Assembly (NCBI GenBank): GCA_016213845.1
Contig: JACQZN010000062.1
Coordinates: 1 to 45,709, forward strand
Direction: 5' to 3'
Origin: Candidatus Wallbacteria bacterium
GTDB lineage: Bacteria; Muiribacteriota; UBA6191; JACPRK01
Length of the DNA stretch: 45,709 bases
Positions 8,549 to 34,480 of this stretch are shown one piece after another. Position 1 is the first letter of the stretch. Each line of letters opens with the position of its first letter. The position numbers were made by a program, and so were the translations under genes. Below the pieces are notes generated by a model that made no database searches, was not told where the DNA came from, and saw nothing but the letters and a program-made list of their open reading frames with translations.

Positions 8549-8552
8549 ACGC

Positions 8553-11363: not shown

Positions 11364-11397
11364 CCTTCACGCTGGCGCGCACCGGTGGGGCGGGGTT

Positions 11398-13773: not shown

Positions 13774-14669
13774 GAGTCCTGACGCTGGTTCTGCTTCTAG
13801 GGTGGTTGCATTTCGACGCGGCGGTTGCGGCTGGCCGTCCGGCAGTGGCCGTGCTCATGAGCGCCTCGGGGCGCTGCGAGGTGGCCCCGGTCGGAGCGGG
13901 CAACTTCGAGGCCGCGCGGGTCGGCATGACGCTCACGGCGGGAGACGTGGTGGCCGTGCGCGAGGGAAGCGCGACGCTGCTGCGGGCCGATGGGCGGGTC
14001 GAGACCGTAGAGGCCGGCAAGAGCGTGCGGCTGGAGCCTCGAGTGGGCGGCGACGCGCCGTCGGGGGCGCTGGGACGGCTCTGGCAGGCGCTACTCAACC
14101 GTGCAACCACCGTGATGTCGGGAACTCGCATCTTGAGCGAGGCCGGCGCCGTGCGCGGGCTGCCTGCAGGACGGATCGATCTGTTGAGCCCGCGCAACAC
14201 CGCACTGCTGGCGCCGCCCGCGCGCGTGGCGTGGGAGCCGCATCCGGCCGTCGGGACCTACCGCGTCCGGATCTCCGACGGCAACGGGAGCGTGGTCTGG
14301 TCCGCGTACACGAGCGGGACGCAAGCTGCCGTTTCGGCGTCGCCGGGTCTGTTCGAAGCGGGCGCGTGGTACTTCGTGCGCGTCACTGACGGCCGCCGCG
14401 GGGGCGTGGCGAGCGACGAGGCATACTTCCGCGTGATGACGGACACCGAGAAGCGCCAGGCTCTCTCCGATGTCGAGACCGTCAAGGGCGCGTTTTCCCG
14501 CGCCGTGGGCGGGGAGGCCGTGGCGCTGGCCGTGGGCGGGATCTTCGAGCATCATGAGCTCCTCGACGACGCCCTGGCGACCTACCGGGGGGCCGGGGCC
14601 GGCGCCGATCTGGCGCGCGCGATCGACTTCGTGCACCTGAAGAACGGCCGGCGGTGGGCGATGCGCTGA
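13770..14669 (+). CDS. Secreted FecR-domain protein
   Basis: The GTG start at 13770 overlaps the CHASE2-CHAT stop (GTGA) and has AAAGGGGGA 6 nt upstream. Signal peptide VRVLTLVLLLGWLHFDAAVAAG, then the FecR-like core ARVGMTLTAGDVVAVREGSATLLRADGRVETVEAGKSVRL. FecR-domain proteins are a known genomic partner of CHASE2 proteins. Confidence 0.65.
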   Translation: MRVLTLVLLLGWLHFDAAVAAGRPAVAVLMSASGRCEVAPVGAGNFEAARVGMTLTAGDVVAVREGSATLLRADGRVETVEAGKSVRLEPRVGGDAPSGALGRLWQALLNRATTVMSGTRILSEAGAVRGLPAGRIDLLSPRNTALLAPPARVAWEPHPAVGTYRVRISDGNGSVVWSAYTSGTQAAVSASPGLFEAGAWYFVRVTDGRRGGVASDEAYFRVMTDTEKRQALSDVETVKGAFSRAVGGEAVALAVGGIFEHHELLDDALATYRGAGAGADLARAIDFVHLKNGRRWAMR

Positions 14670-14699
14670 GGGAGCCCCGGCGGGCGGCTTGTGCCCGGG

Positions 14700-14721
14700 A
14701 TCAGGATACTCAGTTCCTGAT
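14700..14721. promoter_or_regulatory. Inverted repeat ATCAGGA-N8-TCCTGAT, with a second small hairpin GCGAAA-ATCAG-TTTCGC at about 14751..14767, in the 130-nt gap upstream of the efflux operon
   Basis: Seen directly. This is the only relatively AT-richer stretch between the FecR stop and the TolC ATG. It is a candidate operator or promoter element. Confidence 0.3.
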
Positions 14722-14799
14722 TTGGTTCCGAATCGGCCGCGCGCGGTCCGGCGAAAATCAGTTTCGCGTCCCGCCGGTACGCGGTATCCTGTGCGCGCG

Positions 14800-16392: not shown

Positions 16393-16393
16393 T

Positions 16394-17758
16394 ATGAGCC
16401 GGGGGAAGCTCATCGCTGCGCTGGTCGCCGTCCTTCTCACCGGCTGGCTGGGATACTCCAAGTTCGTCAAGAAGAGCGAGCAGAAGGTCGTCTACCGCAC
16501 GGCAAAGGTGGAGCGGGGCGACCTCGTCGCGACCGTGTCCGCGACCGGCACGCTCAACGCCGTCACCACCGTGCAGGTCGGCAGCCAGCTCTCCGGCATC
16601 ATCATGCGGCTTCACGCCGACTTCAACAGCCAGGTGAAGAGCGGCCAGCTCCTGGCCGAGCTGGACCCGGCGACCTTCGCGGCCTCGGTGGCGCAGGGGA
16701 AGGCAGATGTCGACGCTGCCCAGACGGCGATCCAGGCGGCCACCACTGATCTGAAGATCCTGGACGCCGAGGTCGGCGCGGCCCGGGCCGGGATCGCCAC
16801 GGCGCGGGCCAACCTGGCCAAGGCCGAAGTGGCGCTGGTGGACCGGGAACTGATCCTCAAGCGCACACGCGCACTGCGCTCCAAGGCCTTCGCGGCAGAG
16901 CAGGACCTCGACACCGCGCAGGCCAACCGCAACACGGCGGCCGCAGAGGTCGAGGCCGCCAAGGCGGGACTGGAGAACGCGAAGGCCAAGCTCGAGACCG
17001 CCCAGGCGCAACGCATCAACGGCGACAGCAAGGTGGCCTCCTCCCGGGCGCAGCTGGCGCAGAAGCAGGCGTCGCTGGAGCTGGCGCGCGTCAACCTGGG
17101 GCGCACGCGCATCCTCTCGCCGATCGACGGCGTGGTGGTTAGCCGCAATGTGGACGTCGGTCAGACGGTCGCCGCGAGCCTGCAGGCGCCTGTCCTCTTC
17201 ACGATCGCCAACGACCTGAGACGCATGCAGATCGACGCCAACGTCGACGAGGCCGACATCGGCCGCGTGAAACTCGGGCAAACCGTCGAGTTCACGGTCG
17301 ACGCCTACCCGGACGATCGCTTCGACGGAAAGGTCGTCCAGATGCGCCTGCAGCCTATCGTGAGCCAGAACGTCGTCACCTACGACACGGTCATCGAGGT
17401 GGCCAACGAGGCGATGCTCCTGCGGCCCGGAATGACGGCCAGCGTCCGCATCCAGATCGCCAGCGTCAAGGGCGCGCTCAAGGTGGCCAGCGGCGCGTTC
17501 GGCTACCGCCCGGCGCCGCCACCGGGCAAGCCGCCGGCGGCGCCTGCGCCCCTGGCGAAGGGAAAGCGGCGGTTGCACGTTCCTCGGGACGGAAAAGCCG
17601 AGCCCCTGGAAGTGGCGATTGGAATCGCCGACGGCACCTCTACCGAGCTGCTGGACAAGCAGCTCTCCGAGGGGGACGCGGTCATCGTCGGAGACGACGG
17701 CGAGAGCGAGGCCGGCCCGTCGGGCCCGACGAATCCGTTTGCTCCGCGCCGGAGGTGA
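16394..17758 (+). CDS. HlyD/MacA-type periplasmic membrane-fusion adaptor
   Basis: N-terminal TM anchor (LIAALVAVLLTGWLGY), biotinyl-lipoyl-like hairpin (GDLVATVSATGTLNAVTTVQVGSQLSGII...SGQLLAELD), long alpha-helical hairpin, and RILSPIDGVVVSRNVDVGQTV. The ATG is 1 nt after the TolC stop with GAGGTG upstream. Confidence 0.85.
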   Translation: MSRGKLIAALVAVLLTGWLGYSKFVKKSEQKVVYRTAKVERGDLVATVSATGTLNAVTTVQVGSQLSGIIMRLHADFNSQVKSGQLLAELDPATFAASVAQGKADVDAAQTAIQAATTDLKILDAEVGAARAGIATARANLAKAEVALVDRELILKRTRALRSKAFAAEQDLDTAQANRNTAAAEVEAAKAGLENAKAKLETAQAQRINGDSKVASSRAQLAQKQASLELARVNLGRTRILSPIDGVVVSRNVDVGQTVAASLQAPVLFTIANDLRRMQIDANVDEADIGRVKLGQTVEFTVDAYPDDRFDGKVVQMRLQPIVSQNVVTYDTVIEVANEAMLLRPGMTASVRIQIASVKGALKVASGAFGYRPAPPPGKPPAAPAPLAKGKRRLHVPRDGKAEPLEVAIGIADGTSTELLDKQLSEGDAVIVGDDGESEAGPSGPTNPFAPRRR

Positions 17759-17764
17759 GGCGGC

Positions 17765-18511
17765 GTGACGAACGACGTCGTTCGGGTGGAGGAGCTGCGC
17801 AAGGTTTACGACCTGGGCGAAGTGCAGGTCGAGGCGCTCTGCGGCGTGACGCTCTCCATCCGGCGCGGCGAGTTCGTGGCGGTGATGGGCGCCTCGGGAT
17901 CCGGCAAGTCGACCTTCATGAACATCCTGGGTTGTCTCGACCGCCCGACCAGCGGCCGGTACTTGCTCGAGGCCAAGGACGTGTCGACGATGGCGCGCGA
18001 CGAGCTGGCCAGCATCCGCAACACGCGTATCGGTTTCGTCTTCCAGGGCTTCAACTTGCTCCACCGGATGAGCGCGGTGCAGAACGTGGAGCTGCCGATG
18101 CTCTACGGCGACGTACCGAAGACCGAGCGACGCAAACGAGCCGTCGAGTCGTTGACGGCCGTGGGGTTGGGCGAGCGCCAGGGCCATCACCCCAACCAGC
18201 TCTCCGGCGGCCAGCAGCAGCGCGTGGCGATCGCGCGGGCGCTGGTCAATCGCCCTGCCATCTTGTTGGCCGACGAGCCGACCGGCAACCTCGACAGCCG
18301 CACCTCGGTAGAGATTCTGGAGCTCTTCCAGCGGCTCCATCGCGACGGCGCCACCATCGTGATGGTGACGCACGAGCCCGACATCGCCGAGTACTGCAGC
18401 CGCCAGATCCACTTCAGGGACGGCGAGCTCGTCGACGATCGGTCGAACCCCCGCGTGCGCGACGCCGCGGCCGATCTGGCGGCGATGCCGCCGCCGCACC
18501 GGCGAGCCTGA
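17765..18511 (+). CDS. MacB/LolD-type ABC transporter ATP-binding protein
   Basis: Walker A GASGSGKST, Q-loop, signature LSGGQQQRVAIARAL, Walker B ILLADEPTGNLD and H-loop VTHE. GTG start with GGAGGTGAGG upstream. Confidence 0.9.
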   Translation: MTNDVVRVEELRKVYDLGEVQVEALCGVTLSIRRGEFVAVMGASGSGKSTFMNILGCLDRPTSGRYLLEAKDVSTMARDELASIRNTRIGFVFQGFNLLHRMSAVQNVELPMLYGDVPKTERRKRAVESLTAVGLGERQGHHPNQLSGGQQQRVAIARALVNRPAILLADEPTGNLDSRTSVEILELFQRLHRDGATIVMVTHEPDIAEYCSRQIHFRDGELVDDRSNPRVRDAAADLAAMPPPHRRA

Positions 18512-18521
18512 GGCCCCGCAG

Positions 18522-19733
18522 ATGACGCTGGCCGACGTCCTGGGAACGGCGCTCTGGAGCCTCTCCCGCAGCCGCACGCGCACGGGGCTGACGATGCTCG
18601 GGATCATCATCGGCGTCGCCGCGGTCGTCAGCGTCGTCAGCCTGGGGCAGGGCGCCATCGCCAACACTGAAGCCGATATCTCCGCGATGGGCATCAACCT
18701 CATCACGGTCTCTCCGGGCGCCAAGATGTCCGGCGGGTTCCGCACCACCGGCGTGACCACGCTCGTCCCCGACGACGCCCTTGCGATACGCTCGGAGTGC
18801 CCGGCCGTGGCGAACGTTTCCGAGGGCGTCAAGACCACGGCGCAGGCCATCTATCAGCAGAAGAACGCCTCCACCACCGTCGAGGGCGGCTCCGACGAAT
18901 ACCCGCTGGTGCGCGGGTGGCGGCTGTCGTCCGGCGGGTTCTTCGGGCCGGAGCAGGTCCGCCAGGCCGCGAAGGTCTGCGTCATCGGTGAGCTCATCCG
19001 GGAGAAGCTCTTCGGCTCCGACGAGCCGATCGGCAGGATCCTGCGTGTCAACCGCGTGCCGCTGGAGGTGATCGGCGTCTTCGCGCCCAAGGGGCAGACC
19101 AGCTCCGGCCAGGACCAGGACGACGTCGTCGTCGTGCCCTGGACCACGGGGCTGCGCCGCATCATCGGCGCCAAGCACCTCAATTCCGTGCTCCTCTCGG
19201 CGCGGTCGGCAGAGCAAGTGCCGAAGGCTGTGGAACAGGTCACGTCGTTACTCGAGAGGCGCCACCGCATTCCGCCGGGCGGTGAGAACGACTTCAGCTG
19301 CCAGACGCAGCGCGAGGTAGCCGAGGCGCAGGAGGCCGCGACGCTCCTGATGATGACGCTGGTGTCCGTCGTGGCGTTGATCGCACTCTTCGTGGGGGGC
19401 GTGGGCGTGATGAACATCATGCTGGTGAGCGTGCTCGAGCGGACCCGGGAGATCGGCATCCGGATGGCGATCGGGGCCCGCTCGCGCGCCGTGATGTGGC
19501 AGTTTCTGGGGGAGACGGTCGTGCTGACCAGCCTGGGCGGGTTGATCGGTGCGGCCCTGGGGATCGGCGTCGCGCACCTGATCCCGGTGGCGATCGGGTG
19601 GCCGACGCGGGTGACCGCGGCCCCGGTGGTCGTGTCGTTTCTCTTCAGCGCGGCAGTGGGGCTCTTCTTCGGGCTCTACCCGGCCTACCAGGCCAGCAAG
19701 ATGGACCCGATCGAAGCCTTGAGGTACGAGTGA
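18522..19733 (+). CDS. MacB-like ABC permease (MacB periplasmic domain + FtsX 4-TM domain)
   Basis: N-terminal TM (LTMLGIIIGVAAVVSVVSLG), large periplasmic domain, and a C-terminal FtsX-like module (GGVGVMNIMLVSVLERTREIGIRMAIGA...). Confidence 0.85.
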   Translation: MTLADVLGTALWSLSRSRTRTGLTMLGIIIGVAAVVSVVSLGQGAIANTEADISAMGINLITVSPGAKMSGGFRTTGVTTLVPDDALAIRSECPAVANVSEGVKTTAQAIYQQKNASTTVEGGSDEYPLVRGWRLSSGGFFGPEQVRQAAKVCVIGELIREKLFGSDEPIGRILRVNRVPLEVIGVFAPKGQTSSGQDQDDVVVVPWTTGLRRIIGAKHLNSVLLSARSAEQVPKAVEQVTSLLERRHRIPPGGENDFSCQTQREVAEAQEAATLLMMTLVSVVALIALFVGGVGVMNIMLVSVLERTREIGIRMAIGARSRAVMWQFLGETVVLTSLGGLIGAALGIGVAHLIPVAIGWPTRVTAAPVVVSFLFSAAVGLFFGLYPAYQASKMDPIEALRYE

Positions 19734-19734
19734 A

Positions 19735-20952
19735 ATGAGACTGGCCGAGTCGCTCGAGATCGCGCTGGAGGCCGTGGCGCGCCACAGGCTCCGCAGCTTC
19801 CTGACGGCGCTCGGCATCATCATCGGCGTCTTCTCCGTCATCACGATCGTCGCGGTCGGCGCGGGCGCCCAGCACATGATGCAGGAGAGCTTCAAGAGCT
19901 TCGGGACCAACGTGCTCTGGCTCTTGCCCGGTTCGCACGTCCTGGGAGGCGCGCGCATCTCGATCACGATGAGCAACAGCCTCACGCCCGAGGACGCCGA
20001 GGCGATCGCCAAGGAATGCCCGGACGTGATCTACGTCTCGCCCGCGGCGTTCACCGGCTCGCCGGTCGTGCACGGCAACCAGAACTGGTCGACCGTGGTG
20101 AACGGCGTAGGGCAGACCTTTCCTGTCGTTCGGAGCTGGTATCCCGCCCAGGGCGCCTTCTTCACGGAGGCCGAGGTGACGATGGCCGCAAAGGTCTGCG
20201 TGCTGGGGCGTACGGTGGCGACCAAGCTCTTCGGACGCGACGACCCGGTGGGCCGAACGGTGCGGTTGAAGAAAGTTCCCTTCCGGGTCATCGGCGTGAT
20301 GGCGGCGAAGGGACAGACCGGCTGGGGGCAGGATCAGGACGACATCGTGCTGGCGCCCTACACGACCGTGATGAAGAAGCTCTCCGGGCAGACGCACCTG
20401 GCTGCGGTGTCGTGCACGGCTGTCAGCGCGTCCCGGATGAAGCAGGCCTCGGAGCAGATCACGGCGCTGTTGCGAAGGCGCCACCGGATCCAGCCCGGGG
20501 CCGAGCAGGACTTCTCGATTCTCTCGGCCAAGGACGTGCTGGCGATGGTCGACAAGATCTACGACACGCTCATCCTCTTCCTGGGTTCCGTGGCGTCGAT
20601 CGCGCTGCTGGTGGGTGGGATCGGGATCATGAACATCATGCTCGTCTCGGTGACGGAGCGCATCCGGGAGATCGGGATCCGCCTGGCGGTCGGCGCGCGC
20701 GGCCGGGACATCCTGCTGCAATTCCTGCTCGAGGCGTTGCTGCTATCGGTGTCGGGAGGTCTTCTGGGTCTTCTTGCGGGTGTCGGGATCGCGCAGGCGA
20801 TAGCCAGCACGCTCAACTGGCCCATCCTGATCGACCCCGGCAGCTCCGCCATCGCCGTGCTTTTCGCGGCGGGCGTGGGGCTGGCCTTCGGTTTCCTGCC
20901 GGCGTGGCGGGCCAGCCGACTCGATCCGATCCAGGCGCTGCGAAGCGAGTAG
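19735..20952 (+). CDS. Second MacB-like ABC permease (paralogue)
   Basis: Same architecture as the previous gene (GGIGIMNIMLVSVTERIREIGIRLAVGA...). It starts 1 nt after the previous stop. Confidence 0.85.
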   Translation: MRLAESLEIALEAVARHRLRSFLTALGIIIGVFSVITIVAVGAGAQHMMQESFKSFGTNVLWLLPGSHVLGGARISITMSNSLTPEDAEAIAKECPDVIYVSPAAFTGSPVVHGNQNWSTVVNGVGQTFPVVRSWYPAQGAFFTEAEVTMAAKVCVLGRTVATKLFGRDDPVGRTVRLKKVPFRVIGVMAAKGQTGWGQDQDDIVLAPYTTVMKKLSGQTHLAAVSCTAVSASRMKQASEQITALLRRRHRIQPGAEQDFSILSAKDVLAMVDKIYDTLILFLGSVASIALLVGGIGIMNIMLVSVTERIREIGIRLAVGARGRDILLQFLLEALLLSVSGGLLGLLAGVGIAQAIASTLNWPILIDPGSSAIAVLFAAGVGLAFGFLPAWRASRLDPIQALRSE

Positions 20953-23384: not shown

Positions 23385-24860
23385 CTAGCGCGGGCCCAGG
23401 TTGATCCAGACCGACTTGACGGCCGTGTACTGCTCGAGGGCGTGGACGCCCATCTCGCGGCCGAAGCCCGACTGCTTCACGCCGCCGAATGGGGAAGCGC
23501 TGTCGAAGCAGTTGTAGTCGTTGATCCAGACCGAGCCCGCCCGGATGCGGCGGGCCAGCCTGAGGGCGCGCGTGACGTCGGCCGTCCAGATGGCGCTGAC
23601 GAGGCCGTAGACGGTGCCGTTGGCCATACGGATGAGCTCGTCCTCGTCCTCGAAGGTGAGCACCGAGAGGACCGGGCCGAAGATCTCTTCCCGGGCGATG
23701 GTCATCTCCGAGCGGACGCCATCGAAGATGGTCGGCTCCACGAAGTAGCCGCGGTCGAAGGTTGGTCCCGAGAGCCGGCCCCCGCCGCAAACCAGTCGGG
23801 CCTGCTCGGACTTACCGGACTCGATGTATCCGAGCACTCTTTCGAGCTGGCGCTGGCTGATGAGGCTGCCGACGTCGGACGCCGGGTCGAGCGGGTCGCC
23901 CACGCGTAGCGCTCGCGTGGCGTCCGAGAGTCGCTCGAGGAACTCGGAATGAATTGCCTTGTGGAGGAAGAGCCTACTGCCCGCGCTGCAGACCTCGCCC
24001 TTGTTGGCGAAGACGCCCCAGAGGGCGGCGCGCACGGCTGCGTTGATGTCGCAGTCCGGGAAGACGATGTTGGGCGACTTGCCGCCCAGCTCGAGCGACA
24101 GGCGCTTGAGATTGGAATCGGCGCTGGCGTGGAGCAGCTTGCGGGCCGTATCGACGGAACCCGTGAAGGCGACCTTGTCGACTCCCGGGTGGGCGGCGAT
24201 ATGGCCGCCCGTATCGCCGAAGCCGGTGACGACGTTGACGACGCCGGGGGGGAGGCCGGCCTCGGCCAGGATGCCGGCCAGTGCCAGCGCCGTGAGCGGA
24301 GTCTGCTCGGACGGCTTGAGGACCACGGTGTTGCCGGTGGCCAGCGCAGGCGCCAGCTTCCAGGAGGCGAGCAAGAGGGGGTAGTTCCAGGCGACGATGG
24401 CGCCTACCACGCCGACAGGCTCCCGTACTGCGAAGTTGAGGTAGTGACCGTCGACCGGGATGACCTCGCCGTGGAGCTTGTTGGCCCAGCCGGAGTAGTA
24501 GTGGAAGACGTCCCAGGAGGGCGGCAAGTCGCCTCGACCGGCCTCCTTGACGGTCTTGCCGTTGTTGGCCGATTCCAGGCGAGCCAGTTCATCTTTTCTG
24601 GACTGGATCAGGTCGCCCGCGCGGCGCAGGATGCGTCCCCGCTCGGAGGCGTCCATCTTCGGCCAGGGCCCTGATTCCAGGGCGGCGCGTGCGGCGGCCA
24701 CGGCGCGATCGACGTCCTGGGCCGAGCCGTGCACCACGTCGGTGAGCTTCTCGCCCGTCGCCGGGTTGACCACGTCGTAACGGTTCGAGGGCCTGCCCTC
24801 CTCCCAGCGGCCGCCGATCCAGAGCTGGCCGGGCTGGAGGGGATTCGTCGATGCCGTCAT
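23385..24860 (-). CDS. NAD(P)+ aldehyde dehydrogenase
   Basis: ALDH motifs: VVLKPSEQTP, the catalytic Glu context LELGGKSP, the catalytic Cys FANKGEVCSAGSR, and EEIFGPV. ATG 24860 overlaps the alcohol dehydrogenase stop (ATGA). Confidence 0.9.
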   Translation of the reverse strand: MTASTNPLQPGQLWIGGRWEEGRPSNRYDVVNPATGEKLTDVVHGSAQDVDRAVAAARAALESGPWPKMDASERGRILRRAGDLIQSRKDELARLESANNGKTVKEAGRGDLPPSWDVFHYYSGWANKLHGEVIPVDGHYLNFAVREPVGVVGAIVAWNYPLLLASWKLAPALATGNTVVLKPSEQTPLTALALAGILAEAGLPPGVVNVVTGFGDTGGHIAAHPGVDKVAFTGSVDTARKLLHASADSNLKRLSLELGGKSPNIVFPDCDINAAVRAALWGVFANKGEVCSAGSRLFLHKAIHSEFLERLSDATRALRVGDPLDPASDVGSLISQRQLERVLGYIESGKSEQARLVCGGGRLSGPTFDRGYFVEPTIFDGVRSEMTIAREEIFGPVLSVLTFEDEDELIRMANGTVYGLVSAIWTADVTRALRLARRIRAGSVWINDYNCFDSASPFGGVKQSGFGREMGVHALEQYTAVKSVWINLGPR

Positions 24861-26017
24861 GAGGTCTGCATGGCCTCCTCGTAGAGCTGGCGGAGCTCCG
24901 CGGCGCTGCACGTCCGCGGGTTGAGCTGGTGGCAGCCGTCGGCTGCAGCCTGCTCGGTCATTGGCTCAATCATCTCACCCGTGACTCCGGCGGCCGAGAG
25001 CGATGGCGGGATGCCGATCTCCGCGGCCAGCGCCCGCACGCGTTCGATCACGGCGCGGGCCTGCTCTTCGGCCGTGCCGCCCGGGGCCAGCCTCAACGCC
25101 TGGGCGATATCGGACAGGCGCTGCGCGGCGACGGGGAGGTTGAACTCCAGGGCCCGGGCCAGCATGATGCCGTTGGCCAGGCCGTGGTGCAGTCCGGCCA
25201 CCGTCGTTAGCGGATGCGCCAGCGAATGCGTCACCCCCAGGCCCTTCTGGAAGGCGACCGCGCCCATCATCGCGGCCATTAGCATGTGGCCGCGCGCTTC
25301 CAGGTCCGAGCCGTCCCGCACCGCTCGCGGGAGGTGCTCGTCAATCAACCGGATGCCGCCGAGCGCGATCGAATCGCACAAGGGGTGATAGCCGCGGGCC
25401 AGGTAAGCTTCGATGCAGTGCGTGAAAGCGTCCATGCCGGTCGCCGCGGTCAGGTGGGGAGGAAGACCCAGGGTCAGCTCCGGGTCGGCGATGACGGTTG
25501 TGGCCAGCAGGTGCGGGGAGAAGATCACCTTCTTGACGCGGTGCGTCGGGTCGGTGATGACGGTGGAACGGCCCACTTCGCTGCCGGTGCCGGCGGTCGT
25601 CGGGATGGCGATGAAGATCGGCATGTCGGGCCGGATCAGGCCGCCAGCGTTCTCCTCGTAGGAGAGTACGTCGCCGTCGTGCGTCGCCAGCAGCCGGACG
25701 GCCTTGGCGGCGTCCAGGGCGCTGCCCCCGCCGAAGCCGACGATGGCGTCTGCGCTGGAGTCCCGGCACGCACGGCCGCCCGCGTGGACCTCGGGGACGG
25801 TCGGATTGGGGGAGATGTCGCTGAACGCGAAGGCCGAAAAGCCCGCGTCGGAGAGCGTCGAGATCAGCCGGTAGCAGATCTGGGAAGAGACCAGCCCGCG
25901 GTCGGTGATGATCAGCGGACGGCGGACCCGGGCAGCCTTCAGCAGCGCCGGCAACTGGGCGAGGGACCCCGGGCCGAAGAGGATTCGCGTCGGGAATGAG
26001 AACTCGTGAATGGTCAT
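24857..26017 (-). CDS. Iron-containing (group III) alcohol dehydrogenase
   Basis: Fe-ADH signatures: GGGSALDAAKAV, AIPTTAGTGSEV, and His-rich metal-site motifs (THCIEAY, HSLAHPL, LHHGLANG). It lies 17 nt downstream of the GS-like gene. Confidence 0.9.
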   Translation of the reverse strand: MTIHEFSFPTRILFGPGSLAQLPALLKAARVRRPLIITDRGLVSSQICYRLISTLSDAGFSAFAFSDISPNPTVPEVHAGGRACRDSSADAIVGFGGGSALDAAKAVRLLATHDGDVLSYEENAGGLIRPDMPIFIAIPTTAGTGSEVGRSTVITDPTHRVKKVIFSPHLLATTVIADPELTLGLPPHLTAATGMDAFTHCIEAYLARGYHPLCDSIALGGIRLIDEHLPRAVRDGSDLEARGHMLMAAMMGAVAFQKGLGVTHSLAHPLTTVAGLHHGLANGIMLARALEFNLPVAAQRLSDIAQALRLAPGGTAEEQARAVIERVRALAAEIGIPPSLSAAGVTGEMIEPMTEQAAADGCHQLNPRTCSAAELRQLYEEAMQTS

Positions 26018-26034
26018 CGGCGCGCTTCCTTCCC

Positions 26035-27399
26035 TCAGATGATTTCCATGTACCGGGAGAGCTCCCAGCCCGTGACGGCCCGCTGGAACTGGGCGACTTC
26101 CCAGCGGCGCGTCATGACGTAGTGATCGATGAACTCGGCGCCGAGAATCTCGCGGGCGGCCTCGCTCCGGTCGAGAAGCCCGGCGGCCTCGTCCAGGCTC
26201 CTGGGAAGGGGCGTGGCGTCGTCGGCGGTCTGGGTGTAGGCGTTGCCGCTCACGGGCGGCGGCGGTTCCAGCGCCTTCTCGATCCCCCAGAGCCCCGCGC
26301 CGAAGGAGGCCGCCAGCGCGATGTAGGGGTTGATGTCAGCCGCGGCCAGGCGATACTCCACCCGCGTGGCCTTCGCGGACGGCCCCGTGATGACGCGCAG
26401 CGCCGTCGTGCGGTTCTCCACGCCCCAGGCGACGTGCGTGGGGGCCCACGTGCCCGGCACCATCCGCTTGTAGGAGTTGATCGTCGGGGCGATGAGCGCC
26501 GTGGTCTCCCGCATCAGAGCGCACTGGCCGGCGATGTAGCTCTCCAGCGTCTTCGAGAGCCCCGAGCGTCCCCGAGGGCCGTCGGCGAACGCGGGAGCGC
26601 GGGTCTTCCTGTCCCACAGACTCTGGTGCAGATGCCCCGAGCAGCCGGGCAGGTCCTTGTTCCACTTCGCCATGAAGCAGGCCGTGAGCCCGTGGCGCGA
26701 AGCGATCTCCTTGATGCCGGTCTTGAAGAGCGCGGCGCGATCCGCGGCCCGCAGCAACTCGTCATAGTGCAGCGCCGCTTCGAAGACACCAGGGCCGGTC
26801 TCAGTGTGGATGCCCTCGACTTCGCAGTCGTAGGCCTTCATCTGACAGACGATCTCGTCGATCAGGTCAGTTTGCGCGCTGGCTCTGAGCACCGAGTAGC
26901 CGAACATACCCGGCGTCAAGGTCTCCAGGTTGTTGAAGCCCTTCTGGTGAAGGCTCTGCGGCGTCTCCTTGAAGAAAAAGAATTCATACTCGCAGGAGGC
27001 TTTGGGTACAAAACCCATCGCTCCTGCCCGCTCGATGACCCGTTGCAGAACCTGCCGCGGCGACACCGAAAGCGGCGTCTGCGCGTCCTTCATGAAGTCC
27101 ACCAGGAAGAGCGCCGTCCGCTTCTCCCACGGCACCAGCCGGAAACTTCCGAGATCGATCCGGGCCAGCGTGTCGGGGTAACCCGTGTGCCAGCCCGTCA
27201 CGCGGCTCTGGTCGTAGAGCGCGTCGGCGCAATCCCAGCCGAAGATGACGTCGCAGAAGCCGAACCCGTCGGCAGCGGCCGAGGAGAACTTGGCCGGCGA
27301 GATGTACTTCCCTCGCAACACTCCGTCGACGTCGAATCCGGCCACCTTGATCCGCTGGATATCGTTCTCTTCCAGCTTCCGTAGGATCTCATCGAGCAC
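26035..27399 (-). CDS. Glutamine-synthetase-family gamma-glutamyl ligase (GlnA3/GlnA4/PuuA-like)
   Basis: GTG start at 27399 (GGGAGGG 6 nt upstream) gives VLDEILRKLEENDIQRIKVAGFDVDGVLRGKYIS, the GS N-terminal beta-grasp. The catalytic domain carries a conserved C-terminal region (NPYIALAASFGAGLWGI...). It is the first gene of the three-gene operon. Confidence 0.85.
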   Translation of the reverse strand: MLDEILRKLEENDIQRIKVAGFDVDGVLRGKYISPAKFSSAAADGFGFCDVIFGWDCADALYDQSRVTGWHTGYPDTLARIDLGSFRLVPWEKRTALFLVDFMKDAQTPLSVSPRQVLQRVIERAGAMGFVPKASCEYEFFFFKETPQSLHQKGFNNLETLTPGMFGYSVLRASAQTDLIDEIVCQMKAYDCEVEGIHTETGPGVFEAALHYDELLRAADRAALFKTGIKEIASRHGLTACFMAKWNKDLPGCSGHLHQSLWDRKTRAPAFADGPRGRSGLSKTLESYIAGQCALMRETTALIAPTINSYKRMVPGTWAPTHVAWGVENRTTALRVITGPSAKATRVEYRLAAADINPYIALAASFGAGLWGIEKALEPPPPVSGNAYTQTADDATPLPRSLDEAAGLLDRSEAAREILGAEFIDHYVMTRRWEVAQFQRAVTGWELSRYMEII

Positions 27400-27473
27400 G
27401 GCAGCCCTCCCTGTTCGGCCAAAGTGTAACACAGCATACGGTTGTGACCGGGGGGCGGCGGGCCCCAAGTGCG

Positions 27474-27590
27474 GGCCCCTCGAAGGGCATCCTTCGACAA
27501 GCTCAGGATGAGCGGTTCCCGAATGGGCGCGGGACTCCCCCTCCAGCTCCGCTCAGGCTGAGCCTGTCGAGGCCCGCCCTCGAAGGGCCA
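27474..27590. repeat. Small palindromic repeat element (REP/MITE-like) in a divergent intergenic region
   Basis: CCTTCGACAAGCTCAGGATGAGCGG (27491..27515) and its imperfect inverse CCGCTCAGGCTGAGCCTGTCGAGG (27549..27572) match 21/25 and are separated by 33 nt. They are flanked by CCCTCGAAGGGC at both ends. In three frames it translates to ...GILRQAQDERF... / ...PFDKLRMSG... / ...LRLSLSRPALEG..., peptides that resemble ones common in mis-called hypothetical proteins. There is a single copy in this window. Confidence 0.45.
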
Positions 27591-27626
27591 GAACCCTACG
27601 GCATTGCTATACTCGACGCGAGCGAA

Positions 27627-29168
27627 GTGACGCAGACGACGACCGACACCGATGCGGAGCTGCTCCACCGGCTTGGCTATGCGCAAGAGCTCTGGCGCCG
27701 GATGGGAGGCTTCGCCAACTTCGCCGTCTCCTTCTCGATCATCTCCATCCTCTCGGGCGCCATCACCTCGTTCGACCTGGGGCTGGCTTCCGTCGGACCG
27801 GCCCAGATGGGAATCGGCTGGCCGGTGGTCTGCCTCTTCTCCCTGGCGACTGCGATGGCAATGGCCGAGATCGCCAGCGCCTTCCCGACGGCGGGCGGGC
27901 TCTACCACTGGGCCGCCATCCTGGGCGGCAACGGCTGGGGCTGGTGGACGGCCTGGTTCAATCTGATCGGTCTGGTCACCGTGCTGGCCGCCATCGACTT
28001 CGGCGCGGCGGCCTTCCTGCTCGGGTGGGCAGGGCCGCTCGTCGGGCTCGACCTTGCTGCCAGCTCGCCCGCGGCAGCCCAGGCATGGAAGGTGGCCCTG
28101 ACGGCGGCCTTCCTCCTCTCACAGGGCTGGATCAACCACCGGGGGATTCGACTGACGGCACTGGTGACCGACCTGTCCGCCTGGGTCCACATGGCGGGCG
28201 CCGCCCTTCTGACCGCCTCCCTGCTTGGGCTGGCGCGCGCCCAACCGGTCGGCTACCTCTTCGAGTGGATCAACTTGACTGGCTCTCTCGGGGAGGCCGG
28301 ATTTCCGAGGACCGAATCGATGCCGTGGGCGTTCGTGCTGGGGATGCTCATGGCGGCCTACACCTTCACGGGTTACGACGCTTCGGCGCATACGGCCGAG
28401 GAGACCGTCGACGCGGCCAACAAGGTGCCCTGGGGAATGGTGATGGCTGTGGTCGTCTCGGGTGTGTTCGGGTACCTGATGCTTGTGGCGGTGACGCTCT
28501 CCGTTCGGGACCCGCGTCAGGCGCTGGCCTCGGGCGGGGCCGTCATCCACGTGATGCGCCAGGGGTTGCCAGAGTGGCTCTCGCTCGTGCTCCTCGGCAT
28601 CATCTCGCTGGCGCAGTACTCGTGCGGGCTGGCCACGGTGACGAGCCTCTCGCGGATGATCTACGCCTTTGCTCGCGACGGCGGTCTTCCCGGCTCGCAC
28701 CTCTTCAGCCGAGTGAGCCCTGCGACCCGGACTCCAGCGCACGCCATCTGGCTGGGGTCTGGACTGGCCCTGGCCTTCACTCTCTACACGCCGGTCTACG
28801 CGACGATCACCTGCGTGGCCACCATCTCGCTCTACATCTCCTACGCCATCCCGCTCGCCCTGGGGTTGCGTGCGCGCGGCGTCGAGTGGAAGCAGATGGG
28901 GCCCTGGACTCTCGGCAGGATCGGTCCGCCCGTGGCCGCCACGGCCGTCGCCTGGGTCGCCTTCGTCTGTGTCATCCTCGTGCAGCCGCCCAATCGGCTG
29001 GCACTCTGGACGATGCTGGCGTGCGCGGGCTTGCTCGCTCTCTACTGGTTCGCGTACGCCCGGCGCACCTTCCAGGGTCCGCCTCGCGGGCTTCTCAGCC
29101 GCCAAAGGCAGGCCGAGTTGCAGGCAGTGGAAGACCGGCTTTCCGGGCAGACTCCGCAGGCGAAGTAG
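27627..29168 (+). CDS. APC-superfamily amino acid / amine permease
   Basis: 12-TM APC pattern (GGFANFAVSFSIISILSGAITSF... ; ...GYDASAHTAEE...). Start placed at GTG 27627, just upstream of ELLHRLGYAQELW. The 61 codons of the track ORF upstream of it are the translated repeat element, not protein. Confidence 0.75.
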   Translation: MTQTTTDTDAELLHRLGYAQELWRRMGGFANFAVSFSIISILSGAITSFDLGLASVGPAQMGIGWPVVCLFSLATAMAMAEIASAFPTAGGLYHWAAILGGNGWGWWTAWFNLIGLVTVLAAIDFGAAAFLLGWAGPLVGLDLAASSPAAAQAWKVALTAAFLLSQGWINHRGIRLTALVTDLSAWVHMAGAALLTASLLGLARAQPVGYLFEWINLTGSLGEAGFPRTESMPWAFVLGMLMAAYTFTGYDASAHTAEETVDAANKVPWGMVMAVVVSGVFGYLMLVAVTLSVRDPRQALASGGAVIHVMRQGLPEWLSLVLLGIISLAQYSCGLATVTSLSRMIYAFARDGGLPGSHLFSRVSPATRTPAHAIWLGSGLALAFTLYTPVYATITCVATISLYISYAIPLALGLRARGVEWKQMGPWTLGRIGPPVAATAVAWVAFVCVILVQPPNRLALWTMLACAGLLALYWFAYARRTFQGPPRGLLSRQRQAELQAVEDRLSGQTPQAK

Positions 29169-30466: not shown

Positions 30467-32155
30467 TCATCCCGAGTAGGCTTCGTCCTGTTCGATGGCG
30501 GACAGCACCCAGCCGAAACGGCCGGAGGTGATCTTGGAGCCGCAATGCCCGCAGACTCCGGCCTGATCGACCTTCATCGGCGCACCGCAGCCCGGGCAGC
30601 TGGTAAAGTCGGAATCCGATGTGGCTGGAGGCGACGCGGGCTGAAAGTCCCCGGTGCCCGAACGGCGAATCCAGGTCCAGTACTCGCTGAACTCCCGGGG
30701 GTGCTCCTTGGAGCCGGCCACGAGGCCGCTGCCGGACTCGAGCGTGTAGTCGAGCATCGAGGCGAAGATGCGCACGGTCAGCGAGTCGTAGTAGGCGTCG
30801 GAAGAGACCTTCGCCAGTTCGATCTTCCCGACCTTCACGTCCTCGCAGCGATTGGTGAGCGCCGACGAGATGTAGCGTTCGATCCAGAATCGGTGCGTCT
30901 GGAAGAGGTGGTCTGTCTCGAAGGGGCGAATCGCCTCCCAGTTTCTTTCACTCCAGGCCTTTTGCAGGGTCAGGAAAGCCGTCTGCACGTGCTTCTGGAA
31001 CTCGGGCCAGGAGAATCCGGGGTGCCTGGCCTGGAAGTCTCGGCGACGCGCCGCCAGATCGGGCGCCAGAACGGTCGGCGCTCGCGTGCCTGCCTCGGCG
31101 CCTCCCAGGCTTTGAGGATCGATCAACTCTCGCCGCTGGCGCCGCCAGCTCCTGACGGCGCTGACGGTCCAGCCGAGCTTGCCGTCGAGTACGGGCTGGT
31201 CGCAGAAGGTGCACGTACCGTTGGGTCTCACTTCCACGGGAGAGCCGCAGCTGGGGCAGGTGAGTGAGGTCGCCTCTTCGGGTGCGCGGGAAAGTACACC
31301 GGACGCTCGGCGAAAGGTCCACGACTCCTCCACGAAGAGCGACTCGACATAGCTGGTGCAGCCTGCGGGCGCGTGGCGCTCATCGAGGTTGGCCTCGAAG
31401 AGGACGTCGATCTCGGCGTGGTGGCCGAACGGGCGGATGTCCCTGAGGTGGGCGCTGCCGATGACGACGGCTTCGACGGCGGACAGGGCCTGGATCCCCT
31501 GGGGGCGGGCTGCCGCATGCCACGCCTCGATGACGCGCCGGGAGACGTACGGCGCCAGCGGCGCCCACTCCCGGGTGCCGCGCGCCGCCTGGGCACGGGC
31601 GAAGACCAGGTGGACGAAGTCGAGGAAGACGGGCTCCGAGAAGTTCGGGTCCATCTTGCGAAGCCGCTCGAGCTTGAAGGCGAGGTCGGGTCTCGGACGC
31701 GAAAGAGCGGCCGAGTCGTTCAGCAGAGCCTCCGGCGGCGTCGGCAGGCGCGCAAGGACCCACCGTCTGACGTCAGCCACGGTGTCGTCGATCTCCGTCT
31801 GGAACCTCAGGTAGATGCCGCCGCCGACAGCCAGCGGCAGCCACAGAGGCCAGCCGTAGCGGAAGATCCACCAGACGATTCGGAAGAGCGCCAGGGGATC
31901 GAGCGGTTCTCCTGAACCGCCGCTCGAGTATCGGTATCCGGAGCCGCCGTAGGAGCCGCTGCCGTACGAGCGCGAGGAGCCGGACCATCCGCCGCCCGAA
32001 CGCGAGGAGCTGCTGGAGCTGTAAGAGCGACTGGGGGAGCTGGAAGGACGCGAGTAGCTCTGGCCGCCTCCCAGGCGCGCTTGAAGATTGCCTGCCGAGA
32101 GGGTGAGGTAGAGGGCTGCGGCGAGCGCTGCTGCGGTTATGACGCGGCGTGTCAC
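30467..32155 (-). CDS. Membrane protein with an N-terminal signal-anchor, a G/S/Y-rich low-complexity segment, a second TM, then two Tim44-like domains each followed by a CxxC...CxxC zinc ribbon
   Basis: GTG start at 32155 overlaps the upstream stop (GTGA). TM1 VITAAALAAALYLTLSAG. Low-complexity QSYSRPSSSPSRSYSSSSSSRSGGGWSGSSRSYGSGSYGGSGYRYSSGGSG (31912..32074). TM2 LALFRIVWWIFRYGWPLWLPLAVGGGIYL. Tim44-like (NTF2-fold) blocks: FLDFVHLVFARAQAARGTREWAPLAPYVSRRV... and FQKHVQTAFLTLQKAWSERNWEAIRPFETDHLFQTHRFWIERY...EYWTWIRR. Ribbons CPSCGSPVEVRPNGTCTFC (31202..31258) and CPGCGAPMKVDQAGVCGHCG (30542..30598). The 225 N-terminal codons of the track ORF are artefact. Confidence 0.7.
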   Translation of the reverse strand: MTRRVITAAALAAALYLTLSAGNLQARLGGGQSYSRPSSSPSRSYSSSSSSRSGGGWSGSSRSYGSGSYGGSGYRYSSGGSGEPLDPLALFRIVWWIFRYGWPLWLPLAVGGGIYLRFQTEIDDTVADVRRWVLARLPTPPEALLNDSAALSRPRPDLAFKLERLRKMDPNFSEPVFLDFVHLVFARAQAARGTREWAPLAPYVSRRVIEAWHAAARPQGIQALSAVEAVVIGSAHLRDIRPFGHHAEIDVLFEANLDERHAPAGCTSYVESLFVEESWTFRRASGVLSRAPEEATSLTCPSCGSPVEVRPNGTCTFCDQPVLDGKLGWTVSAVRSWRRQRRELIDPQSLGGAEAGTRAPTVLAPDLAARRRDFQARHPGFSWPEFQKHVQTAFLTLQKAWSERNWEAIRPFETDHLFQTHRFWIERYISSALTNRCEDVKVGKIELAKVSSDAYYDSLTVRIFASMLDYTLESGSGLVAGSKEHPREFSEYWTWIRRSGTGDFQPASPPATSDSDFTSCPGCGAPMKVDQAGVCGHCGSKITSGRFGWVLSAIEQDEAYSG

Positions 32156-32778
32156 TTGTCGTAGAATCGGGGGCGGTTGGGGAGCTCGTCCGGGTTGGCG
32201 GCCGAAGGGGGGAGGGGGCCCGACACCACGGTTCCGATGGCGTCCAGGGCAGCGAGCGCGCGAAGGGTCGCGGGGACGCCAGCTTCTCTGGCCGCCCTGA
32301 ACTGGTGGACGATGCGGTGTAAGTGGGAAGACTCGATCGCGCTGGCGACTCCAACATCCGGAAGCAGCACGAGCTCGTCCTCGAAGCTCGACTGGAACAC
32401 GAGAAGCCCTGTCCTGCCACGGGTTGCGGCCACGCTCTCGTCGACGAAGTGGATTCGCGCCTCCCGCTCCGCCTGCCGCCGCATCCTGCCCGTCGAGCAG
32501 AACGGCCGGCGCACGGCCGGCACCCGCGCCACCGCCAGCGTCGCCAGCGCGAAGGTCACCGCCAACACGGGCAGCAAGAGCTCCTGGTGCAGCTCCACGG
32601 GGCAGTAGACCAGCACGGCCAGGACCACGGCCGTCAGCGCGATCCCCACCGAAAGCTCCACGTCCCGGTAACTGCCGCATTGCCGGCGCCCCACGAAGAC
32701 CAGCTCCACGCACGTGAGCGCCTCGATCCGCTCGATCGCGGCCTCCACATCTTTCGCGAACTGCGCGTCGTCTCTCAT
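32152..32778 (-). CDS. Hypothetical 208-aa membrane protein (two TM helices) of unknown function, translationally coupled to the Tim44-like gene
   Basis: ATG 32778 (residue 92 of the track ORF). MRDDAQFAKDVEAAIERIEAL..., then two hydrophobic helices (VGIALTAVVLAVLVYCP / LLLPVLAVTFALATLAVARV) and a C-terminal soluble part. No family recognised. Confidence 0.5.
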   Translation of the reverse strand: MRDDAQFAKDVEAAIERIEALTCVELVFVGRRQCGSYRDVELSVGIALTAVVLAVLVYCPVELHQELLLPVLAVTFALATLAVARVPAVRRPFCSTGRMRRQAEREARIHFVDESVAATRGRTGLLVFQSSFEDELVLLPDVGVASAIESSHLHRIVHQFRAAREAGVPATLRALAALDAIGTVVSGPLPPSAANPDELPNRPRFYDK

Positions 32779-32817: not shown

Positions 32818-32932
32818 CCCAACGAGGCACGGGCGCGCTTCGTGACTGGTGTTACAATTGGCTGGTCCCGCTCCGGCCCCTCCGCGGCCGGCACGCCGAC
32901 TGCCAGGCCGGGCCCCGCCCCAAGGAGAGCCG

Positions 32933-34480
32933 ATGACCGCAGATGGAATGGAGATCACGACCAGCGTCGTCGGCGCCTCTTCCGGCAGCCGCGAGCTGGC
33001 GCCCGATACCTGCCTGGTCGTTCTGTTCGGAATCACCGGCGACCTGGCCAAGCGAAAGCTCGTCCCCGCCTTCTACAACCTCGCACGCGACCGCAAGCTC
33101 CCCGAGGGGCTCCACATCATCGGCGTCGGCCGCGAGGAGATCCCCGCCGAGGACGTCATCGCCATGCACCGGAAGACGACGGAGAAGTTCTCGCGCAGCC
33201 AGCCGATCGAGGACGAGGTCTGGAACGACCTGGCCCGCCGCATCGACTACGTCGGCGGCGACTTCAACGAGGACAGCCTCTACGCCGCCCTTTACCAGAA
33301 GGTCCTGACGCTCGAGTCGTCGGGCGTCACCCGAAACAACCAGCTCTACTACCTATCCGTGCCGGCCCAGCTTTTCCCGAACATCCTGACGAAGCTGCGC
33401 AGGAGCCGACTGATGCCCGCCGTTGCCGCGTCACGCCTGCCGGCCTGGACCCGCGTCATGGTCGAGAAGCCTTTCGGACACGACCTCGACAGCGCCACCG
33501 AGCTCAACCGCCTGATGGCCGGCTTCCTGGACGAGAAGCAGATCTACCGGCTCGATCACTACCTGGGCAAGGAGACCGTCCAGAACATCCTGGTGTTCCG
33601 CTTCGGCAACTCCATCTTCGAACCGATCTGGAACCGCAACTTCGTTGACCACGTCCAGATCACGGCTGCCGAGAACATCGGCATCGAGGGGCGCGGCAAC
33701 TTCTACGAGCGCACCGGCGCCCTCCGGGACATCGTGCAGAACCACCTGCTGCAGGTGATGTCGCTCTGCGCCATGGAGCCGCCCATCTCGTTTCGCGCCG
33801 AGGATGTGCGCGACGAGAAGACCCAGGTGCTGCGGGCCATCCGGCCGATGTCGCCCGCGCAGGTTCGGCAGAACGTCGTCCGCGGCCAGTACGCGGGGTA
33901 CACCTCCGAGAAGGATGTCGCGCCCGATTCGACTCAGCCCACCTACGTGGCGCTCAAGCTCGAGATCGACAACTGGCGCTGGAAGGGCGTGCCGTTCTAC
34001 TTGCGCGCCGGCAAGTCGCTCTCCAGGCGGCTCACGGAGATCCGCGTGCAGTTCCAGGCCGTGCCGCTCTCGCTCTTCGATTTCGACCAGAGCCACTGCC
34101 ACCTGCTGCGCCCCAACGTGCTCACGATCCGCATCCAGCCCGACGAAGGGCTGGTCCAGCAGTTCATGTGCAAGGTGCCGGGCGAGGAGCTGACCGCCGC
34201 CGCCGTGACGATGGACTTCAGCTACGACCGCGCCTTCGGGAAGTCGGTGCCGGAGGCCTACGAGCGGCTGCTGCTGGACGCGATGCGCGGGGACGCCACG
34301 CTCTTTGCCCGTCGCGACGCCGTCGAGCGCTCCTGGGAGCTCTGCATGCCGATCCTCGACGCCTGGGCCTCCGACCCCGAGATCCCGCTCCATTCCTACG
34401 CGCCCAGCAGCGCGGGCCCGGCCGCGGACGACGAGCTGCTGGCACGCGAGGGCCGCTGCTGGGAGCCGCTCAAGCCCTGA
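32933..34480 (+). CDS. zwf: Glucose-6-phosphate 1-dehydrogenase
   Basis: NADP-binding site FGITGDLAKRKL, active-site signature DHYLGKE, and the EKP / RIDHY context. ATG 32933 with AAGGAGAG 6 nt upstream. Confidence 0.9.
   Translation: MTADGMEITTSVVGASSGSRELAPDTCLVVLFGITGDLAKRKLVPAFYNLARDRKLPEGLHIIGVGREEIPAEDVIAMHRKTTEKFSRSQPIEDEVWNDLARRIDYVGGDFNEDSLYAALYQKVLTLESSGVTRNNQLYYLSVPAQLFPNILTKLRRSRLMPAVAASRLPAWTRVMVEKPFGHDLDSATELNRLMAGFLDEKQIYRLDHYLGKETVQNILVFRFGNSIFEPIWNRNFVDHVQITAAENIGIEGRGNFYERTGALRDIVQNHLLQVMSLCAMEPPISFRAEDVRDEKTQVLRAIRPMSPAQVRQNVVRGQYAGYTSEKDVAPDSTQPTYVALKLEIDNWRWKGVPFYLRAGKSLSRRLTEIRVQFQAVPLSLFDFDQSHCHLLRPNVLTIRIQPDEGLVQQFMCKVPGEELTAAAVTMDFSYDRAFGKSVPEAYERLLLDAMRGDATLFARRDAVERSWELCMPILDAWASDPEIPLHSYAPSSAGPAADDELLAREGRCWEPLKP

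Follow-up and report, generated by a model that had tools for sequence, protein, structure and literature searches.

The stretch of DNA analysed here, called the window below, comprises 45,709 nucleotides (nt) of a contig from a public metagenome-assembled genome (MAG) labelled Candidatus Wallbacteria, and this work concerns two overlapping genes on its minus strand, referred to as gene A and gene B. They form a conserved operon encoding two inner-membrane proteins, whose adjacency and overlap are kept across phyla. Gene A encodes a BA42-type TPM domain interrupted by an inserted two-helix membrane hairpin, while gene B encodes, in this order, a signal or transmembrane (TM) helix, a Gly/Ser/Tyr tract, a TM helix and two ribbon-bearing Tim44-like domains. 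Both domains are known, and the proteins are annotated automatically as 'Tim44-like', 'transporter' or 'putative membrane protein'; the pair is no new kind of system. It is a solid and widespread conserved pair, with no surprising chemistry or mechanism demonstrated. The two genes and their junction lie as follows.

32152..32778, minus strand: gene A, 208 amino acids (aa), start codon ATG at 32778, stop codon TGA at 32154-32152, open reading frame (ORF) and start as read in the sequence
30467..32155, minus strand: gene B, 562 aa, start codon GTG at 32155-32153, stop codon at 30469-30467
32152..32155, minus strand: GTGA start/stop overlap of genes A and B, read directly in the sequence

The deposited annotation of the same contig also gives gene A a length of 208 aa (P0046, 100% identical), and the closest homologue of gene B (P0001, 93% identical) likewise has 562 aa. 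An earlier note on this DNA had described a GTGA overlap with a 208-aa upstream gene, which is exact by sequence.

Conservation of the gene pair

A pattern scan, with one genome per species, found relatives of gene B in at least 582 species genomes, and the best 80 of these came from MAGs, most of them assigned by label to Myxococcota, Planctomycetota, Acidobacteriota or Vulcanimicrobiota/Xenobia and some to other groups. At the protein level, the family comprised about 1,774 clusters (50% identity) at E<=1e-30 (HMMER, 1.84 billion representative proteins), and the top 150 clusters all matched nearly the full profile, with both Tim44-like modules. The combination of tandem domains and ribbons, held by the earlier note to be 'not a standard arrangement', is in fact the standard form of this family.

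Of 85 loci, 72 had a homologue of gene A immediately upstream of gene B and in the same orientation; since three of the other 13 were truncated by the contig, this amounts to 72 of 82 informative loci. The two genes shared a 4-nt start/stop overlap in 52 of the 62 junctions that could be evaluated (30 ATGA, 20 GTGA and 2 TTGA), and a 1-nt overlap in two others. The gene pair is thus indeed conserved, in line with the earlier note, but the term 'obligate pair' used there is too strong, as ten loci have gene B without gene A. The loci devoid of gene A include second gene B copies from the same genome and one tandem B-B locus. In locus L009 (1099-4358), two tandem gene B paralogues occupy one strand with no gene A upstream, and the MAGs DAIOEN01, CAYRFU01 and JAEEML01 carry two or three gene B copies, with or without gene A. 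Clustering of the neighbours across the 85 loci revealed no third conserved gene, and synteny was lineage-specific only, 19 loci sharing a methyltransferase-like ORF downstream and 17 a different ORF upstream.

Several homologues depart from the usual form. In the metagenomic protein P0186 (690 aa), a split TPM domain resembling gene A (residues 10-193, E=6e-51) is joined to a gene B-like sequence at ARPGGGQSF, and this protein is either a genuine fusion or the product of an artefactual frameshift in the 4-nt overlap. It was accorded little weight as Rosetta-stone evidence, since one indel at such an overlap would create the fusion. Among three longer proteins of 789-807 aa, P0167 and P0229 display extra N-terminal hydrophobic segments and Tim44-like motifs before an internal equivalent of the first gene B helix, followed by ARVGGGQ, and in P0174 the N-terminal signal and the Ser-rich tract are followed by an additional Tim44-like/ribbon module. 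Two other gene B variants, P0042 (742 aa) and P0045 (622 aa), have HEAT-repeat Pfam matches and a C-terminal extension of about 130 aa, respectively.

Domain architecture of the two proteins

Used alone as a query, gene A yielded only three homologues in a word-indexed database. Its family profile drew on 72 homologues recovered from the loci around gene B relatives, of which 35 were aligned. The Pfam model TPM_phosphatase (PF04536, the TLP18.3/Psb32/MOLO-1 family) was matched by 22 of these 35 (best 1.7e-9), and the profile matched the PDB structures of BA42 (2LT2, 2MPB and 4OA3) at E=8.5e-18, in two pieces. Positions 4-36 of the profile correspond to BA42 8-40, and positions 103-202 to BA42 42-141; the intervening residues of gene A, about 65 in number, form two strongly hydrophobic helices to which BA42 has no counterpart, its residues 40 and 42 flanking the insertion point. 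The AlphaFold2 (AF2) model of gene A, with a predicted local distance difference test (pLDDT) score of 94.6 and a predicted template modelling (pTM) score of 0.88, matched BA42 with a template modelling score (TM-score) of 0.80-0.82 (Foldseek, best match 4OA3), followed by TLP18.3, AscF, Rhom172_1776, Psb32, PG_0361 and BA41. The model thus shows the alpha-beta-alpha sandwich of TPM domains, and every other solved domain of this kind ranked after BA42. The upstream gene, seen by the earlier note as a 'small 2-TM protein', does have two TM helices, but it is actually a split BA42-type TPM domain, with the following parts.

32671..32778, minus strand: residues 1-36, N-terminal helix and first TPM strand, with invariant E19 and E25; equivalent to BA42 8-40, modelled as helix 5-21 and strand 24-31
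32524..32667, minus strand: residues 38-85, transmembrane hairpin; hydropathy peaks 2.33 and 2.14, helices 38-58 and 65-85
32155..32493, minus strand: residues 96-208, C-terminal bulk of the TPM domain, with the TRxRTGxL motif, E133 and D141; equivalent to BA42 42-141, conserved columns
32167..32214, minus strand: C-terminal motif LPPSAANPDELPNRPR (consensus LPxxxDNPDE[IL]PNxPR), from 35 homologues

The tail consensus of gene A is matched in BA42 by 'KKDDIDELPN' and is followed, in the model, by a short strand (residues 204-206). The C-terminal tail of BA42 was reported to replace a missing strand of the sheet (PMC13456599), and the short strand of gene A fits such a completion of the sheet by the tail. 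The gene A family keeps the acidic residues E19, E25, E133 and D141, which align to acidic residues of BA42, a protein that binds two Ca2+ ions (PMC13456599). The TPM domain of AscF was reported to bind neither metal nor nucleotide.

The features of gene B, from the N-terminus to the C-terminus, are listed below.

32078..32155, minus strand: residues 1-26, hydrophobic N-terminal helix (Sec-type signal peptide or first TM helix), from the model and homologues
31907..32077, minus strand: residues 27-83, disordered Gly/Ser/Tyr tract, from composition and pLDDT
31811..31897, minus strand: residues 87-115, aromatic-rich membrane segment (second TM helix, TM2) with a kink at G101/P103, from the model
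31133..31690, minus strand: residues 156-341, Tim44-like module 1, from the first Pfam Tim44 stretch, the internal repeat and the model
31202..31258, minus strand: zinc ribbon 1, CPSC-x11-CTFC (C300, C303, C315 and C318), all four Cys invariant
31070..31105, minus strand: linker motif between the modules, GGAEAGTRAPTV (consensus GGxExGTxLPTV), E354 nearly invariant
30488..31057, minus strand: residues 367-556, Tim44-like module 2, from the best Pfam Tim44 stretch, the model and fold matches
30542..30598, minus strand: zinc ribbon 2, CPGC-x11-CGHC (C520, C523, C535 and C538), from Cys conservation

The assignment of the two modules is carried by profile and fold alike. The Pfam Tim44 model (PF04280) matched gene B in two stretches at E=6.9e-27 (94.8 bits, for a gathering cutoff of 29.6) and was carried by 45 of 45 gene B homologues, while the two halves of the protein (residues 141-345 and 346-562) are 27% identical (E=1e-17). 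The AF2 model had a mean pLDDT of 74.9, most 10-residue blocks inside the modules exceeding 80, and its top 31 Foldseek matches in the PDB were all mL45 or Tim44, the closest solved structures being mL45 of mammalian mitoribosomes (E ~2e-4) and the Tim44 C-terminal structures 2CW9, 3QK9, 2FXT and 9J9B_C; TcpC, ARC6, CaMKII and VirB8-like folds ranked after these and were weaker. The two tandem Tim44-like domains proposed by the earlier note are therefore upheld, and the other NTF2-like families which it had named as possible alternatives, SnoaL and DUF4440, gave no match to gene B even at E<=1; the Pfam search brought up no NTF2-like family besides Tim44. Module 1 opens at a DPNFSEP.FLDF motif and continues with helices, then with strands between residues 224 and 284 and a last strand at 330-341. 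In module 2, the Pfam match covers residues 372-501, equivalent to positions 6-135 of the 147 of the model, and the strands were modelled at 433-498, with the last at 550-556. The family also shares a C-terminal motif, W-V-L-S-x-I-E-Q-D-E-x-Y.

Each of the two modules indeed bears a ribbon, as the earlier note had stated, but the spacing is x11 rather than x13-15, and the ribbons do not cap the domains. Ribbon 1 was modelled between strands 269-284 and 330-341, and ribbon 2 between 487-498 and 550-556, both at pLDDT ~81-88; this position between the penultimate and last strands, together with the end of the Pfam match at 135 of 147, points to an insertion in the final hairpin. Seven of the eight ribbon cysteines are invariant in 20 homologues, and the eighth, C538, is at least 90% conserved. 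The zinc-ribbon models of Pfam all remained under their cutoffs with gene B (DZR at ribbon 2, 20.9 bits for 27.3, 4e-4; Zn_ribbon_15 at ribbon 1, 21.5 for 28.9, 4.3e-4), and several gene B homologues have precomputed matches to PF12773, PF13240 or PF13248.

The N-terminal helix of gene B, with a positive N-terminus and a hydrophobic core, was modelled as helix 2-25. In most homologues, small residues occupy positions -3 and -1 (mostly A-x-A/G) before the invariant R27, so that this helix resembles a Sec signal and may be cleaved, R27 then being the mature N-terminus. The 'signal-anchor' of the earlier note thus holds as far as an N-terminal hydrophobic helix is concerned, but the helix is Sec-like and possibly cleaved rather than an anchor. 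In P0167 and P0229, its equivalent is internal. A Tat signal, considered because of the N-terminal 'TRR' of gene B, was rejected, the twin arginine not being conserved in homologues.

The low-complexity segment, described in the earlier note as 55 aa rich in Ser, Gly and Tyr, was recovered as a tract of 56 residues (28-83), of which 24 are Ser, 15 Gly, 6 Tyr and 5 Arg. It opens with the motif R-x-G-G-G-(Q)-S-(Y), whose R27, G29 and G31 are invariant in the homologue alignment, it ranges from roughly 15 to more than 100 residues among homologues, and pLDDT stays below 50 across residues 21-85. The second TM helix of the earlier note also appears in the model, where helices 87-100 and 102-136 represent it, but residues 87-115, rich in Trp and Arg, remain under a simple Kyte-Doolittle threshold. 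The TM2 region has the family motif LLxxLxFxxPxIGIPL, after which many homologues carry basic residues.

A possible membrane complex and its alternatives

With confidence about evenly balanced, we propose that gene A and gene B form a stoichiometric adaptor or scaffold complex on the cytoplasmic face of the membrane. As gene A has two TM helices and no signal peptide, its whole TPM domain should face the cytoplasm. In gene B, the basic residues found after TM2, the Cys4 ribbons, which suit a reducing compartment, and the N-terminally extended variants argue for a tract outside and Tim44-like modules inside; the internal helix 1 of P0167 and P0229 indeed suggests that this helix can be a genuine TM helix running from inside to outside, with cytoplasmic domains before and after it. 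A periplasmic location of the Tim44-like modules was rejected on the same three grounds. The predicted arrangement would thus place the TPM domain and both Tim44-like modules in the cytoplasm and the Gly/Ser/Tyr tract in the periplasm.

Mechanistically, translational coupling would make gene A and gene B in fixed proportion, and the two proteins would assemble via their three membrane helices. The inserted hairpin would hold the whole TPM domain of gene A against the membrane, and the Tim44-like modules would rest on the inner leaflet in the manner of Tim44 and mL45. The ribbons and the linker motif may provide surfaces that recruit a soluble client, and the TPM subunit, given the acidic residues shared with BA42, may act as a divalent-cation- or nucleotide-responsive, or chaperone-like, partner. 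The role of such a complex would be in membrane-linked assembly or envelope homeostasis.

Several points weigh against this proposal. The sequence of gene A by itself reached no Pfam or NCBIfam model, and published work credits TPM domains with phosphatase, ATPase/ADPase and pure scaffold roles, none of them agreed. Gene B can stand alone, as seen in the ten loci with enough upstream sequence and no gene A. The interaction of the two proteins is a prediction, and so are their topology and the binding of zinc. No PspA, band-7/SPFH or LemA gene was found beside the pair in the window, where 26 other large ORFs with high GC content at third codon positions were scanned for LemA, TPM, PspA and band-7 matches, and none was consistent across the other loci. 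Lastly, our literature search found no paper linking Tim44-like and TPM domains. Searches on Tim44 with zinc ribbon, PspA or COG4395 found nothing relevant, and those on LemA and TPM returned a transcriptome mention only; no paper was found that describes the A-B pair, the link of split TPM proteins to LemA operons, or the parallel with YdjG/YdjH of Bacillus subtilis, discussed below.

Other explanations of the pair were weighed against the same evidence. The Tim44-like modules might bind, move or sequester lipid, with the TPM domain as a phosphatase or nucleotidase close to the membrane, whose substrate would be a lipid or a nucleotide. This would be in line with the Joint Genome Institute (JGI) label 'predicted lipid-binding transport protein (Tim44 family)' on several homologues, with the crystallisation of the yeast Tim44 C-terminal domain with the detergent Cymal-3 (3QK9), with the phosphatase or ATPase/ADPase activity reported for TPM proteins and with the acidic residues of gene A at positions acidic in BA42. 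The 'transport' label is, however, an automatic annotation, some TPM domains, such as that of AscF, bind neither metal nor nucleotide, and no lipid-metabolism gene was consistently linked to the pair across the 85 loci; such a lipid-handling machine is rather unlikely. It is quite improbable that the modules dock ribosomes at the membrane for co-translational insertion in the manner of mL45/Mba1, with the ribbons touching rRNA. The best structural matches of gene B are indeed mL45 proteins of mitoribosome large subunits (E ~2e-4), zinc ribbons often occur in proteins that belong to the ribosome or bind nucleic acids, and 'ribosomal protein L37AE/L43A' is the automatic name of one homologue; yet the fold match cannot tell mL45 from Tim44, their scores being almost equal. 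Neither the loci nor the window scan linked a ribosomal, YidC or Sec gene to the pair, and the TPM partner would be left without a role.

The similarity of fold to Tim44 in the TIM23 complexes 9J9B and 8E1M would also suit a tether, comparable to that of the mitochondrial TIM23 motor, through which gene B brings DnaK or a J-protein to the membrane. We nevertheless regard this as highly improbable: only the C-terminal, membrane-binding domain of Tim44 was matched, with no counterpart of its N-terminal part, the NCBIfam Tim44/TimA scores were below cutoff, and neither dnaK nor dnaJ was linked in the loci or the window scan. Hardly any credence is given to the idea that genes A and B are unrelated neighbours whose overlap is a by-product of a compact, high-GC genome. 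The ten loci with gene B and without gene A, and the gene A relatives found in LemA operons without any Tim44-like gene, would be in its favour, but order, strand and adjacency were kept in 72 of the 82 informative loci, in several phyla and with other neighbours changing, and the 4-nt overlap was found in 84% of junctions.

The adaptor or scaffold complex may be carried further, tentatively and with some doubt, to a widespread unrecognised inner-membrane complex in which a Tim44/mL45-type and a TPM domain cooperate, the exported R-x-G-G-G tract sensing the envelope. TPM and bacterial Tim44-like domains are both very common, with no agreed function, and the pair joins them in one translationally coupled module, which offers a testable membrane-face adaptor hypothesis for three poorly understood families. 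If true, its study would reveal which task the Tim44 fold had in bacteria prior to its mitochondrial use in protein import and ribosome docking, and it would provide the first defined partner logic for TPM and LemA modules.

Neighbouring genes and comparison with known systems

The genes that flank the A-B pair are unrelated to it. A histidine kinase gene is convergent with gene B, with 13 nt between the stop codons, and zwf (glucose-6-phosphate dehydrogenase, window 32846-34477) is divergent from gene A. Promoter and terminator scans of this region, with 69% GC, gave nothing usable. A role in defence was rejected for lack of support from the PADLOC models, which gave chance-level matches only for gene B (E>=0.076) and none for gene A.

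Farther away, the window (40727-43393, plus strand) contains an ORF of about 889 aa resembling the major vault protein (MVP), with matches to MVP_shoulder (PF11978, 8.8e-26) and Vault_3 (PF17795, 6e-7), which lies 8 kb from the pair with no link shown. The MVP shoulder domain is SPFH-like. Two very large ORFs (stop-to-stop ~1,200 and ~770 aa) at 34493-39513 on the minus strand had no Pfam match, and adjoin a small protein at 39453-39917 (plus strand) with a type IV pilin-like N-terminal methylation motif (PF07963). At 8526-13770 (plus strand), two neighbouring proteins with a CHAT domain, of which one has TPR repeats and the other a CHASE2 sensor domain, are preceded by a zf-HC2 anti-sigma-like protein and a histidine kinase. 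A MacAB-TolC-type efflux operon (OEP, HlyD-family adaptor, ABC ATPase and two MacB_PCD/FtsX permeases) extends over 14641-20949 (plus strand), and the region 23388-29165, with an aldehyde dehydrogenase, an Fe-alcohol dehydrogenase, a glutamine-synthetase-like enzyme and an amino-acid permease, looks like a cluster for amine (putrescine-type) utilisation.

Among known proteins, BA42, a stand-alone TPM protein of Bizionia argentinensis, is aligned over nearly its whole length by the gene A profile, including the acidic D-E-L-P-N tail. Neither BA42 nor gene A has a signal peptide, so both should be cytoplasmic. BA42 is soluble, whereas gene A has a two-helix membrane hairpin of about 65 residues between the equivalents of BA42 residues 40 and 42, and the two proteins are only ~12% identical in the structural alignment.

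The modules of gene B match, by profile and by fold, the mitochondrial membrane-binding NTF2-like proteins with PF04280, namely the Tim44 C-terminal domain, mL45 and Mba1. Unlike these, gene B has two tandem copies, a Cys4 ribbon before each last strand, its own TM helix and an exported tract; the N-terminal region of Tim44 has no counterpart in gene B, whose N-terminus is occupied by the signal helix, the low-complexity tract and the TM helix. In bacteria, alphaproteobacterial TimA and the Tim44/TimA adaptor family (NCBIfam NF033778 and NF033779) are, like gene B, membrane proteins with a Tim44-like domain. Gene B matched these two models at E=1.2e-15 and 3.6e-7, both below cutoff (58 bits for 80, and 30 for 200), and at such scores it would not pass for a bona fide Tim44/TimA orthologue. 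The model lengths of 215 and 198 positions fit proteins with a single module; gene B differs by its second module, its two ribbons and its TPM partner.

The split TPM protein was also observed in another setting. The gene A profile retrieved distant homologues at E ~1e-34 to 1e-39, some of them from the cultured Microvirga vignae and some from Methylobacterium, and in every case examined (L086-L092, from Methylobacterium, Microvirga and metagenomes) the homologue was the last gene of an operon encoding LemA (PF04011), a TPM protein and the split TPM protein. Representatives such as P0077 (Methylobacterium) and P0080 (Microvirga vignae), of the type found by the gene A profile at E ~1e-37 to 1e-39, have about 200 aa and, like gene A, an N-terminal TPM part, a two-TM hairpin, a C-terminal TPM part and a DELPN tail. 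In these operons, as in the A-B pair, the split TPM gene is tightly packed against a gene for a membrane protein with a Gly-rich segment; there it comes last, preceded by LemA and by a TPM protein that is periplasmic and bears a TM helix and, at its C-terminus, a Gly-rich tail, whereas gene A comes first in the pair. The split TPM protein therefore has two alternative partnerships, with LemA and a TPM protein or with the double Tim44-ribbon protein. No LemA-TPM-TPM operon exists in the window, where the 26 scanned ORFs gave no LemA or further TPM match.

Two side observations concern the LemA operons. Their middle TPM protein (L086-L092; L087 5208-5993, for instance) ends with a TM helix and a long Gly-rich tail, such as ...GGGGFSGGGGSSGGGGASGDW, which recalls the GGGxS[YF]xGGG start of the gene B tract on the opposite predicted side of the membrane; as the tail should be cytoplasmic and the tract is predicted to be periplasmic, this low-complexity resemblance may mean nothing, which adds to the points that count against the proposed complex. 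In the Methylobacterium loci L087-L089, zwf lies ~5 kb from the LemA-TPM-split TPM operon, and it stands directly beside gene A in the window, which is probably a coincidence.

A further parallel, drawn from described domains, is the YdjG/YdjH pair of the B. subtilis pspA-ydjGHI operon. That operon has PspA and a band-7 protein, none of which lies beside the A-B pair according to the window scan. YdjG has two zinc ribbons, an NTF2-like domain and a TM segment (Ravi et al., 2024, PMC11237479), and YdjH a TPM domain and a low-complexity segment (PMC11237479). The five elements are distributed differently from those of genes A and B, the ribbons of YdjG being N-terminal and the low-complexity segment residing on the TPM protein YdjH; moreover, the NTF2-like domain of YdjG is described as YpeB-related, not Tim44-like, and the TPM domain of YdjH is unsplit by a hairpin. 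YdjG and YdjH interact, and the soluble proteins YdjI and PspA depend on both to reach the membrane, where the two serve as their anchor (Scholz et al., 2021, PMC8581546). Both systems are nevertheless adjacent pairs built of the same elements, namely TPM, zinc ribbon, NTF2-like, TM and low-complexity segments, and the complex proposed here would be related to the LemA-TPM-TPM module, though without LemA, and analogous to the YdjG/YdjH anchor of B. subtilis.

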